In this document: positions 21,829 to 24,740 of the stretch, piece after piece
Layout: every line of letters begins with the position of its first letter
How positions within the stretch are numbered: position 1 is the first letter of the stretch
Assembly: GCA_030149205.1 (NCBI GenBank)
Contig: JASBSB010000001.1
Coordinates: 390,001 to 422,000 of the forward strand
Reading direction: 5' to 3'
DNA: 32,000 nt
Source of the DNA: Candidatus Heimdallarchaeota archaeon
GTDB taxonomy: Archaea; Asgardarchaeota; Heimdallarchaeia; Heimdallarchaeales; Kariarchaeaceae
Notes under the pieces: model-generated
What the model was told of the DNA's origin: nothing
The model's database searches: none
Seen by the model: the letters and a program-made list of their open reading frames with translations, nothing else
Position numbers and translations under genes: made by a program

Positions 21829-22995
21829 TTAGAATTTTCTCTTCTTGATTACTAAGACTAACATACCTACTCCAAACGCTGCCAAAATTGACAGAATTGA
21901 AAGTGGTGATCTTGCTACCGTAGTGGTATAGTCAATGTAAGTTCCAGCTAAAGTGAACTCTAGACCTTGTAAGCTTGCTCCTACACCTGAGAAGTAAGCC
22001 ACATTTGAGGATTGACCTGCATCTGAATTAACTAAAGATGAGGTTTGGAATCCTTGAGGATCTAGGGTTAATATTCCAAAGTAATTTGAACCAGTTCCTT
22101 TGCTAAATTTGAAATGGGATGTAAATGAAGTTCCAGTCATTGCATGTACTCCTAGATCATCGACATACATATTGAAACCGGGAGCTGAAGTTGTTCCATT
22201 CAAAAATGTAGCATTAAAGGCTAAAGTTCCAGAAGTGTTAAAGGCACCTCCAACTTCGATTCCTTTTGCATTTTGAATATCACTTGGATTTACAGTGTCA
22301 CCAGCTCCAATAGAAGTCTTACCGTATCCAAAAGTTAAGTTTTGATAAGGAGCATTAAAATTAGTTGCAGCAAAATCCAACGGATACTTTGCAGATGAAT
22401 TATATGTGTCAACTGCTTTCAAATTTGTTGGAATCCCAATTAAGTTTGGAGCAAATTCAAAACCAGTAATTGATGTCCTCACACGCACATAGATGGTATC
22501 ATATGCCAGAGTGTAGGATCCAGTTCCATTAAAGGCCACATAAAGGACGCTAATAAAGCTATCCCCTTGACTTAAAGGTACTGTAACACCACTTGAGCCA
22601 TATTCTGAACCAGAATTGACATACTTGATCAGGTTATTTGTAATAACAAAAATTTGACCAGCTGTGTCCTTTCCTTTTACCTTTACGACACCAGAGTAAT
22701 CGAATTTAACTACACCAATGGTGACATCTTGAGTGGCAATAATGTCATAAGTTGTCAATCCATTTACTTTTATTGGGGCTGGGTGATAAGCTCCTTCCGT
22801 AACGGAAGAATTTCCAAAAAAGTAAATCGAAACACCAAAACTTCTTGTGGTGTTCACAAACGAATTGGGACGTAAATCAACAGGGCTTGTCTTTGCCTGT
22901 TCAGCCACTGTCAAATTAACAGTTGCTGACAAAGAAATTGAGACTATTAACGTCACAATCATTAACCAGGTTATACTTTTCTTGCGGATGTTCAT
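21829..22995 (-). CDS. Secreted/cell-surface beta-rich protein with N-terminal signal peptide and C-terminal membrane anchor
   Basis: MNIRKK plus a hydrophobic leader, a Ser/Thr/Gly/Asn-rich body with several N-x-S/T sequons, and a terminal TTTVARSP, TM helix and KKRKF. Confidence 0.8.
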   Translation of the reverse strand: MNIRKKSITWLMIVTLIVSISLSATVNLTVAEQAKTSPVDLRPNSFVNTTRSFGVSIYFFGNSSVTEGAYHPAPIKVNGLTTYDIIATQDVTIGVVKFDYSGVVKVKGKDTAGQIFVITNNLIKYVNSGSEYGSSGVTVPLSQGDSFISVLYVAFNGTGSYTLAYDTIYVRVRTSITGFEFAPNLIGIPTNLKAVDTYNSSAKYPLDFAATNFNAPYQNLTFGYGKTSIGAGDTVNPSDIQNAKGIEVGGAFNTSGTLAFNATFLNGTTSAPGFNMYVDDLGVHAMTGTSFTSHFKFSKGTGSNYFGILTLDPQGFQTSSLVNSDAGQSSNVAYFSGVGASLQGLEFTLAGTYIDYTTTVARSPLSILSILAAFGVGMLVLVIKKRKF

Positions 22996-23123: not shown

Positions 23124-23642
23124 TCAAAGTCGTGGGAAAATTTTTACCTCGTTATTAACGAATGAAAAAGTATGAAGGTTTGAGAAATCATACTTTCCCT
23201 CATAAGTTGATCGGTGAGATTCGTAACGATCATTGGTTATAATGAAAAGTTTCTCTGGAATAGCGTGTTCAATTACTGAGTTGTCATCATCTCTTGATGA
23301 GTCAGCAAGAATTACCCATCCAATATTGATAAGTCTTTGCAATTCATCTTTGTCATCTATATTGTGGATCAGTGCTTCACTGATAATAATCACTGGAAAA
23401 TATTCATTCTTTTTTAGATAGATACGTATTTTCTTTATCAGATGTACTTTTGGTGACCCAAAATAATATGCTACATTGTTACCATCCACCACAATTTTTC
23501 TCATTTTGGGTTTATGAATTTGGTTGATCTTAATTTGATTGAGTTTTCCTGCTTCCATTAACTCAGGATGATATTTGGACAAATGATAGTTCATTTCATG
23601 GTTGTCAACAGATCGACCACAGAAATCACATTTGTATTTCAT
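23124..23642 (-). CDS. C2H2 zinc finger plus Zc3h12a/Regnase-like NYN (PIN) ribonuclease
   Basis: YKCDFCG...HLSKYHP finger; IVVDGNNVA, RDDDNSVIEHA and IITNDRY carry the acidic catalytic residues. Confidence 0.82.
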   Translation of the reverse strand: MKYKCDFCGRSVDNHEMNYHLSKYHPELMEAGKLNQIKINQIHKPKMRKIVVDGNNVAYYFGSPKVHLIKKIRIYLKKNEYFPVIIISEALIHNIDDKDELQRLINIGWVILADSSRDDDNSVIEHAIPEKLFIITNDRYESHRSTYEGKYDFSNLHTFSFVNNEVKIFPRL

Positions 23643-23720: not shown

Positions 23721-24740
23721 TCAAGTTCCTGATCCTTTGAAAGCACTTTTTAATTTGTCTTGAAGAGCTTTTTTCATATCTTCCGCAGACATTTCCTCTA
23801 GGTTTATCTCTTCCTTTGCCTCTTGTTTGTTGGCTTCTTTACCTTTGGTTTTAACACTCTTTAGCCCTTTTAAAGCACTCTGTATAGAATCTTGGGTTAT
23901 TCCACCACCACCAGAAGAAATTGGGGATGGTTTTTTAATCTCATCCTCAGGAACGCTTTGAAGACCTTTTAATGCACTTTGAATCGAATCTTGAGTGATC
24001 CCACCAGAATTTACTGAAGCAGAGGGAGCACCTTCAGTCGATTTGTTCATTTCATCCTGTGGAACTGATTTTAATGCACCCAATGCAGACTGAAGTTCAT
24101 TGTTATTTGGACTACCACTTAGATTTGGCATTGCAGGACTGGCGTTTGGTGCCACTCCTCCTAGGTTTGGAGCACCAGGGCTGGAAGAAGGAGTTCCTCC
24201 GCCAAGGTTAGGGGTATTTGAACCAGATATAGGTGCCCCTCCACTGAGGTTAGGGGGTGATACTGGGTTGGAAGGAGGTGAGCTCGCTAGATTAGGTGCA
24301 ATTGGACTATTTACCGGTGCGCCGCTACTAGCACCAGGAGATACGGGGTTAGATACTGCTGCACTACTACCGAGGTTGGTGCTCGTGGGAATTGAAGGTT
24401 GGCTTACCTGCATTTGGGGAGTTGCAACTGTTTGTTGTATGTGTTTTGTATTCACAGTATTTGATGAGGGAGTTGGAATAAACTCGTCCTTAAAGATATT
24501 CAGGGAACTTAAATTTAAAGATGTTTGAGGTAACCCCGCTAATTCTTCAACAAGATCATCAAACTCCTCTTCTACAAAGGTGAGTTTACTGTTTATACGT
24601 TTCAATTTAGGGGTTGTGTCTGCAATAAAATCTGCTATCTTACCTCCCAATGTATTAATCTTTAGTGCAACTTTCTTCAGTTGCTTTGTATCCTGAGAAG
24701 TTTCTAATATCGTGTCAATGTAATTCTCTAGGTCACTCAT
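23721..24740 (-). CDS. Helical N-terminus, Pro/Gly/Ser-rich linker and three tandem (L/I)QSALxxL(K/Q)SV repeats; candidate WH2-like actin regulator
   Basis: 339-aa ORF with a low-complexity centre and internal repeats that are directly visible. The function is inferred. Confidence 0.75.
   Translation of the reverse strand: MSDLENYIDTILETSQDTKQLKKVALKINTLGGKIADFIADTTPKLKRINSKLTFVEEEFDDLVEELAGLPQTSLNLSSLNIFKDEFIPTPSSNTVNTKHIQQTVATPQMQVSQPSIPTSTNLGSSAAVSNPVSPGASSGAPVNSPIAPNLASSPPSNPVSPPNLSGGAPISGSNTPNLGGGTPSSSPGAPNLGGVAPNASPAMPNLSGSPNNNELQSALGALKSVPQDEMNKSTEGAPSASVNSGGITQDSIQSALKGLQSVPEDEIKKPSPISSGGGGITQDSIQSALKGLKSVKTKGKEANKQEAKEEINLEEMSAEDMKKALQDKLKSAFKGSGT
23853..24107 (-). repeat. Three intragenic peptide repeats: NNNELQSALGALKSV, ITQDSIQSALKGLQSV, ITQDSIQSALKGLKSV
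   Basis: Repeats lie at 24063..24107, 23952..23999 and 23853..23900, spaced 37 and 33 aa. Repeats 2 and 3 are 15/16 identical in protein but differ at many synonymous positions. Confidence 0.92.

Follow-up and report, generated by a model that had tools for sequence, protein, structure and literature searches.

A conserved family of mostly disordered scaffold proteins, specific to Heimdall-group archaea, with a layout reminiscent of eukaryotic actin-assembly factors

The window analysed here, a 32,000-nucleotide stretch of contig JASBSB010000001.1 from the Candidatus Heimdallarchaeota archaeon assembly GCA_030149205.1, carries on its minus strand an open reading frame (ORF) for a 339-residue protein, labelled P0001. 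The gene is genuine, conserved and so far unannotated in Heimdall-group Asgard archaea, and its product, encoded by a single-copy gene, belongs to a family of scaffold proteins that are mostly disordered and specific to the Heimdall group; no description of this family was found in the literature searched. The arrangement of the protein's parts recalls eukaryotic actin-assembly factors, and a link to actin is put forward from that layout as a hypothesis, not as a finding. The host genome (G000; 3.3 Mb in 12 contigs, completeness 93.5%) provided the 14,274 ORFs used for genome-wide scans, and P0001 was modelled with AlphaFold2 (AF2) on 14 aligned orthologues. The attribution of this DNA to an Asgard archaeon, made in a first-pass annotation, is supported by an actin gene scoring 445 bits against Pfam Actin, by a Vps4/ESCRT-III cluster, and by the source, 'Candidatus Kariarchaeaceae archaeon', that NCBI gives for two orthologues, both described as hypothetical proteins.

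All elements that this annotation had listed, namely an N-terminal helical region, a linker, three repeats and a final helix, are present in the 339-residue ORF and in the AF2 model (Table 1). The N-terminal domain is predicted as two helices, at residues 2-14 and 18-69, with predicted local distance difference test (pLDDT) scores of 88-95. Its conserved hydrophobic residues (21, 24, 28, 31, 35, 42, 46, 49, 53, 56, 60, 63/64 and 67) follow an unbroken 3-4 heptad pattern and its hydrophobic periodicity peaks at 3.5-3.6, so that the domain is read as a coiled coil of about seven heptads, presumed to be an oligomerisation module; two of its residues, G32 and E57, do not vary within the family. 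The helical region had been correctly recognised, and the QLKKV stretch noted in it is not a separate LKKV motif, since L21 and V24 are heptad positions of the coiled coil. A fold search with the P0001 model returned generic long coiled coils only, the best with Z 6.0, below the level meaningful for helices. The 119-residue linker (23 Pro, 23 Ser, 13 Asn, 12 Ala and 12 Gly) shows pLDDT values below 50. In its C-terminal half PNL recurs at residues 149, 163, 177, 191 and 205, with an exact tandem period of 14 residues, and the linkers of orthologues consist of 9-10-residue GPNLGGAPSG units in varying number.

The repeats of P0001 are far beyond chance: of the 14,274 ORFs no other matches the repeat pattern more than once, against three matches here, and the repeat profile recovers it with E = 4e-29, the next-best ORF reaching E = 1.7. 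Each repeat contains one predicted helix of 11-12 residues in surroundings with pLDDT below 50, the repeat period is 33-37 residues, and the motifs read LKSV, LQSV and LKSV. Repeats 2 and 3 share 17 identical residues, 10 of them encoded by synonymously different codons, which argues that the copies are old and have been kept by selection on the peptide and not on the DNA. An orthologue survey had been named in advance as a check, and it finds the repeat motif kept. The C-terminal helix is predicted at residues 319-336 (pLDDT 86) and is the most conserved element next to the coiled coil, with L326, L330 and A333 invariant across the family; the C-terminus of P0001 reads ...KSAFKGSGT.

Two other identities for these elements were considered and rejected. 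Ubiquitin-interacting motifs (UIM) carry a conserved Ser in their consensus, and an invariant Leu occupies that position in the repeats. A membrane-targeting role of the C-terminal helix was ruled out by its net acidic character in one family of genomes (f7) and by the acidic tails behind it in two others (f2 and f4).

Table 1. Location of P0001, of its elements, and of a second protein family's copy in the host genome
Feature	Residues	Coordinates	Strand	Remarks
P0001, whole coding sequence		23721..24740	minus	339 amino acids, ATG start, TGA stop
N-terminal domain	1-75	24516..24740	minus	short and long helix, about 7 heptads
Disordered Pro/Ser/Asn/Ala/Gly linker	89-207	24120..24476	minus	from composition and pLDDT below 50
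Repeat 1	208-235	24036..24119	minus	NNELQSALGALKSVPQDE, predicted helix 213-223
Repeat 2	245-272	23925..24008	minus	GGITQDSIQSALKGLQSVPEDE, predicted helix 250-261
Repeat 3	278-305	23826..23909	minus	GGITQDSIQSALKGLKSVKTKGKE, predicted helix 283-294
C-terminal amphipathic helix	315-336	23733..23798	minus	SAEDMKKALQDKLKSAF
Recombinase-like family, copy in host genome		G000:C4:284651-286240 (locus L102 1483-3072)		outside the window, about 104 kb upstream on the same contig; orthologues L094-L106

The distribution of the family was explored in 400 genomes of the Asgard phylum, including about 340 outside both the window's order, which comprises the genome families f1 to f4, and f7, one more family of its class. 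A profile of the C-terminal region detects one copy per genome in 10/11 genomes of f1, 27/31 of f2, 1/1 of f3 and 3/3 of f4, that is, in 41 of the 46 genomes of the order. In f7 it is found in 8 of 12 genomes, or in 11 of 12 with a profile of the end helix; f5 is negative (0/22), and no other family among the 400 genomes is positive with the C-terminal-region profile. The end-helix profile yields over the same genomes the same distribution plus four weak, scattered matches at about chance level (E 5e-5 to 6e-3). Against 1.84 billion representative proteins the C-terminal region gave 16 matches, all of them family members or fragments with the exception of one diatom protein, and no WH2-annotated protein was among them. 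A word-based homologue search with P0001 returned the query itself only, and feature-based protein atlas searches with residues 205-339 and 1-90 gave no usable match. No Pfam domain was found in scans of P0001 and of the 14 aligned members; a Pex19 match (E = 0.4, 10.8 bits) was judged noise, and one to CCDC53, a WASH-complex subunit (E = 0.086, in one of the 14 members), a chance coiled-coil match.

The layout is constant throughout the family: a coiled coil, a Pro/Gly arm with a variable number of PNLG-type units, the repeats, a charged spacer and the end helix. The repeat consensus reads G-G-[ILVMF]-S-x-x-x-[IL]-x-x-A-L-x-x-L-K-K-[AV]-P-x-x-E, present in 1-4 copies across orthologues, and that of the end helix [ST]-x-x-[ML]-K-x-x-L-[QE]-x-x-L-[KR]-x-A-[FL]. 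Further elements occur in relatives. Members from f7 contain true polyproline (TPPPPPPKP or PPPPPP runs), and most lineages (f1, f2, f4 and f7) show a basic helix of the ELKxxLxxRR type, for instance SEFASILEKRR, VLSELSQVLQRRR, EVKDALAKRK and GELAEKLANRRQKV. Acidic residues follow this helix in relatives, accompanied by Phe in f2 and f7 as an internal DEDF/DDFD patch, and f2 and f4 orthologues end in acidic tails lacking Trp. P0001 itself is devoid of the polyproline, the basic helix and the acidic tail. The lack of long polyproline runs and of an acidic Trp tail, raised at the outset as a caveat, consequently stands for P0001 and not for the whole family, although the tails of relatives also lack the Trp.

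In the orthologues L008-L011 and L016, ATT, ATC or ATA is found where the others have an ATG or GTG start ('M/I/V-S-...'), with no in-frame ATG, GTG or TTG near that first codon; non-canonical start codons may be used in them. The only match outside the family is KAG7374342.1 (P0014) of the diatom Nitzschia inconspicua, a 2,389-residue protein detected by the C-terminal profile with E = 1.5e-5. At about residues 1650-2010 it displays 11 tandem units of 33 residues, each composed of PPP, a Gly run, a short helix, ALKKA and a charged tail, and it has no Pfam WH2 match. These units may be convergent, or may represent a eukaryotic form of this type of docking repeat.

Anatomy, conservation, coiled-coil heptads and disorder of P0001 are shown by the analysis; as to function, the protein might be a multivalent recruiter of actin monomers, which would bind actin in a WH2/GAB-like manner and serve as a monomer-gathering nucleation or elongation factor. 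This reading is held tentatively, at somewhat less than even chances, and by analogy with known systems. P0001, a cytoplasmic and mostly disordered protein, would then be an oligomeric scaffold, several chains of which would be joined by the N-terminal coiled coil. From it, each chain would extend a flexible PNL-repeat arm ending in the conserved helix, and the arm would show three docking peptides, in each of which K/Q-S-V-P and acidic residues come after an amphipathic helix I-x-x-A-L-x-x-L. The most likely client would be the organism's eukaryote-like actin, several monomers of which could be gathered by the oligomer, favouring filament nucleation or barbed-end elongation with the logic of VASP, VopL or Spire.

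The actin reading is favoured considering that (i) the host actin closely resembles its eukaryotic counterparts (about 540 bits against those of the PDB) and keeps the stretches LSLYASGRTTG, the acidic pair in GFAGEDQP, and SILASLKTF, which, going by known actin-WH2 structures, would belong to the WH2 contact surface of actin, (ii) the co-linear layout is kept family-wide, in the Pro-rich, V, C, A order of the WASP family, (iii) the C-terminal half of the WH2 pattern is enriched in the family, (iv) each repeat is a short predicted helix in disorder, as for WH2, and (v) the synonymous codon differences between repeats 2 and 3 point to selection on the peptide. The host actin gene lies elsewhere in the genome (L001 1495-2628, minus strand; G000:C2), and its closest solved relative is 'HC1 actin' (PDB 9wc4, 625 bits); actin of the Heimdall group can be produced, as the solved HC1 structure attests.

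For the motif comparisons, the WH2 pattern was taken as a helix core [VILM]-[LM]-x-x-[IL], a linker of 4-5 residues and L-[KR]-[KR]-[VTA] (PMC3298513, Kollmar et al. 2012); 42 family members were tested, with expected counts derived from the ORFs of the host genome. The C-terminal half of this pattern, [IL][KRQ]x4-5 L[KR][KR][VTA], gives 9 matches in 7 of the 42 members against 0.11 expected. In P0001 it gives no strict match, and three with a pattern relaxed post hoc. WH2 is described as a short helix within a disordered region (PMC5792643), and amphipathic helices of about 10 residues in disordered segments are indeed predicted by AF2 in each of the three repeats. In common with WH2/beta-thymosin and with tandem-WH2 proteins (Spire, Cobl, VopL/VopF), the family shows a short amphipathic helix in disorder followed by Leu, basic residues and Val/Ala, and in common with the tandem-WH2 proteins it shows tandem copies together with a preceding Pro-rich arm and an oligomerisation module. 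The spacing [IL]-[KRQ]-x5-L-K-K-[AV] of the family fits the C-terminal half of the published pattern. The helix-to-LKxV linker had been noted as some three residues shorter than canonical, a concern that is settled only in part. Taking the conserved I/L that lies four residues ahead of 'AL' for the final hydrophobic residue of the helix gives the spacing [IL]-[KRQ]-x5-L, the canonical five residues and within the published 4-5, but AF2 places the Leu inside the helix.

Several results weigh against the actin reading, the first of which concern WH2 itself. Membership of the WH2 family, as claimed in the first-pass annotation, is not upheld: the Pfam model (PF02205, cut-off 23.1 bits) has no match in P0001 at E<=10, is not among the 25 of 34 families listed when the 14 aligned members are scanned, and yields over the six-frame genome a sole match of 9.8 bits, elsewhere than P0001. 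The full published pattern is absent from all 42 members, P0001 included, because they lack the helix core [VILM]-[LM]-x-x-[IL]. No WH2, thymosin, WASP, WAVE or VASP chain came up at E<=10 when PDB sequences were searched with single members or with the profiles of the repeats and of the tail. The P0001 motifs differ from WH2 also in holding a single basic residue at most (K/Q-S in place of two), in a conserved Pro after the motif, and in a Leu of LKSV predicted to be intrahelical, and on the model the motif may simply be one i, i+3, i+4, i+7 amphipathic helix. In the literature searched, the only WH2-like motif of Asgard archaea is an LKKT-like linker inside gelsolins (PMC9433394).

The resemblance of the repeat helices to known motifs is of little weight for another reason, since their pattern proves generic. 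With residues 200-339 as phmmer query against PDB sequences, designed Armadillo repeats were the best match (whole-sequence E = 2.5e-6), SPNNNELQSALGALKSVP aligning to the consensus SPNEQILQEALWALSNIA, and the period of 33-37 residues would also suit the C-terminal region folding as an Armadillo/HEAT-like helical repeat instead of presenting linear motifs. Such a fold is highly improbable. Single matches score only 2-9 bits, the E-value being the sum of one query segment over six target repeats; Armadillo units are three-helix solenoid units of about 42 residues, whereas P0001 has one helix of 11-12 residues per unit with pLDDT below 50 in between; the spacers, of Pro, Gly, Ser and charged residues, are without the hydrophobics for helices H1 and H2; and the repeat number varies from 1 to 4 among orthologues. 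The predicted model and the spacer composition together exclude the fold.

Also unfavourable to the actin reading, the gene neighbourhood of the orthologues shows no link to actin genes. Most of the Asgard genomes searched yielded no member of the family, although Lokiactin, profilins and gelsolins are general to Asgard archaea (PMC13716822); the actin system therefore does not generally require it. Finally, the same motif set occurs on a recombinase-like protein, which fits a non-cytoskeletal hub equally well.

This last observation introduces the closest alternative, in which the multivalent scaffold P0001 would dock a partner that is not actin, its helices being portable peptides that recruit a lineage-specific hub. 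We regard it as possible if doubtful, and nearly as likely as the actin reading, binding to a Vps4 MIT domain being less likely. It draws on a second conserved family (9/11 genomes in f1, 3/3 in f4) that joins a Phage_integrase-like domain (PF00589, 5e-13) to a tail with the same elements. This tail is long and disordered, with GPNL/GPSL repeats, small polyproline patches and a G-G-x-x-hydrophobic-x-x-ELKxxLxxRR helix. The member of genome G008 bears one GIADALKGLSKAP repeat (ALKGLSKAP), several members have an acidic, aromatic end DIPDIPDFSE, and in the host genome the basic helix is found only in the recombinase-like ORF (Table 1). The catalytic motifs of the tyrosine-recombinase/Phage_integrase-like domain look degenerate by eye. 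The shared motif set suggests portable docking peptides on unrelated domains; the common tail fits a common hub partner and weakens a purely cytoskeletal reading, and since a DNA-binding protein carries the same peptides, the partner could have to do with chromosome handling or cell division. The uniformly negative tests for known motif families fit a non-actin hub as well, and so does the restriction of the family to one class, as expected had it co-evolved with a lineage-specific partner. On the other side, no candidate hub protein was identified, the neighbouring genes of orthologues vary, and a DNA-bound protein with actin-docking peptides is conceivable, as in ParR-ParM, which makes the shared tail compatible with actin too.

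A further possibility, raised together with the WH2 proposal, was that the repeats are ESCRT MIM-like motifs; P0001 would then be an ESCRT-linked adaptor, with its repeats and/or C-terminal helix as MIM1-type helices binding the MIT domain of Vps4. The MIM1 spacing is L-x-x-R-L-x-x-L-(K/R), equalled by the I-x-x-A-L-x-x-L-K of the repeats, and the conserved helix, like MIMs, occupies the very C-terminal end. The host genome encodes an MIT-bearing Vps4 and ESCRT-III tails reading DLENEIEQLRK and DLENELESLKKEL, to which the f7 end helix DLEDELRSAFSKL looks similar; the ESCRT-III C-termini DLENEIEQLRKDE and DLENELESLKKELEGK have a hydrophobic spacing in common with the P0001 repeats, the heptad-like hydrophobic-x-x-x-L-x-x-L-K. 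The corresponding cluster (G000:C8:42616-45822, locus L052, outside the window) consists of Vps4 (MIT plus AAA, the MIT domain at G000:C8:42616-42807), a 229-residue unknown protein and two ESCRT-III genes. This alternative is nonetheless improbable. The family end-helix profile recovers neither host ESCRT-III tail over the 14,274 ORFs, despite 1,160 matches up to E = 1000, and the residues that define MIM1 are replaced, the conserved Arg by Ala in the repeats and the third Leu by an invariant Ala in the end helix. Pfam finds no Snf7 core, that is, no ESCRT-III core, in P0001 or the aligned members, PDB sequence searches gave no ESCRT chain, and the P0001 gene is unlinked to the ESCRT cluster on contig 8. 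To our knowledge, tandem MIM1 arrays are not a known design.

Returning to actin, the layout of the family was compared with those of two eukaryotic groups of assembly factors. In Ena/VASP, the EVH2 region is ordered as a Pro-rich segment, a G-actin-binding block, an F-actin-binding block and a tetramerising coiled coil. Likeness to it lies in a Pro-rich arm, a GLxxxIAxA..L-K/R-K-[AV]-type block, a Gly run, an E-[LM]-x-x-[LM]-L-A-R-R-R-type block and a coiled coil, and is strongest in the tail of the recombinase-like family, which in the G008 member has GLGGIADALKGLSKAP, a Gly run and ELKALLARRRKMA. On the contrary, the coiled coil is N-terminal in the P0001 family and C-terminal in Ena/VASP, there is no EVH1, and P0001 is without the ARRR block. 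Searches with the G008 tail returned only the query and no Ena/VASP protein among 5.8 billion proteins, in a search insensitive to a likeness of about 13 residues, and no Ena/VASP protein among PDB sequences.

In the WASP family the order is Pro-rich, V, C, A (PMC3298513). As in the proline-rich domain (PRD)-V-C-A region of WASP/WAVE/WASH, orthologues of P0001, but not P0001 itself, combine a Pro-rich arm and LKK[AV] motifs with a subsequent helix having three hydrophobics three apart plus RR/RRR, after which come an acidic tail (f2, f4) or a Phe-containing acidic patch (f2, f7). Both the WASP family and the P0001 family also have, at the N-terminus, a helical domain specific to the family. 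The differences are the absence of Trp, the extra conserved end helix, and the lack of a C-like helix in P0001. The C-domain pattern (three large hydrophobics three apart, an R/K doublet or triplet, and a hydrophobic) has no match in P0001, and in the family its 7 strict matches equal the background expectation of 7.1, which means no enrichment; the C-like segment keeps its position in f2, f4 and f7, but a pattern this poor in information cannot count. P0001 likewise shows no acidic C-terminus with Trp or an aromatic residue. No Arp2/Arp3 paralogue was found, Pfam Actin giving one gene in the 93.5% complete host genome, and some f2 genomes contain actin relatives at 35-39% identity.

None of the genes neighbouring P0001 in the window is conserved beside its orthologues, whose neighbours are housekeeping or variable genes, with BacA, a methylase or a KaiC-like protein downstream. 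In f1, the orthologues (L004, L006 and L007; by ORF size L009, L011 and L019) usually have a tRNA-splicing endonuclease (PF01974, PF02778) upstream on the same strand. This linkage is absent in the genome of the window, where the P0001 gene lies between an NYN RNase gene and a divergent M24 peptidase gene. The former (23124-23642, minus strand), 80 nucleotides downstream of the P0001 gene on the same strand, encodes a 172-residue protein with an N-terminal Cys/His-rich stretch and a Zc3h12a-like NYN RNase domain (PF11977, 1.6e-12), and is not conserved beside P0001 orthologues. At 21829-22995 (minus strand), a 388-residue protein has a hydrophobic segment at its N-terminus and another at its C-terminus, followed there by KKRKF; it is rich in Asn, Thr and Ser, with many N-x-[ST] sites and no Pfam match, and from these features looks like a glycosylated surface protein.

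Known Asgard actin regulators in the literature searched are profilins and gelsolins only (PMC13716822, PMC9433394), so that an Asgard assembly factor recruiting monomers has yet to be described there, whether it would gather them to initiate filaments or to lengthen them. A conserved single-copy Heimdall-group protein with a VASP/WASP-type layout constitutes a concrete and cheaply testable candidate for this missing activity. Asgard cells build actin-filled protrusions, and the Heimdall group is the lineage placed nearest to eukaryotes. More speculatively, and with smaller chances than either the monomer-recruiter or the non-actin hub, the family could represent a pre-eukaryotic actin-assembly factor of the Heimdall group with a VASP/WASP-like build, comprising a coil for oligomerisation, a Pro-rich arm, helices that dock G-actin, a basic helix of filament or Arp type and an acidic tail, whose portable docking module, present also on the recombinase-like DNA-binding protein, might couple DNA to actin filaments as ParR-ParM does. 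If the client is other than actin, the family would provide a new set of portable archaeal docking peptides, a mode of wiring usually thought eukaryotic. If the pre-eukaryotic assembly-factor reading is true, the WH2/VASP design principle would predate eukaryotes.

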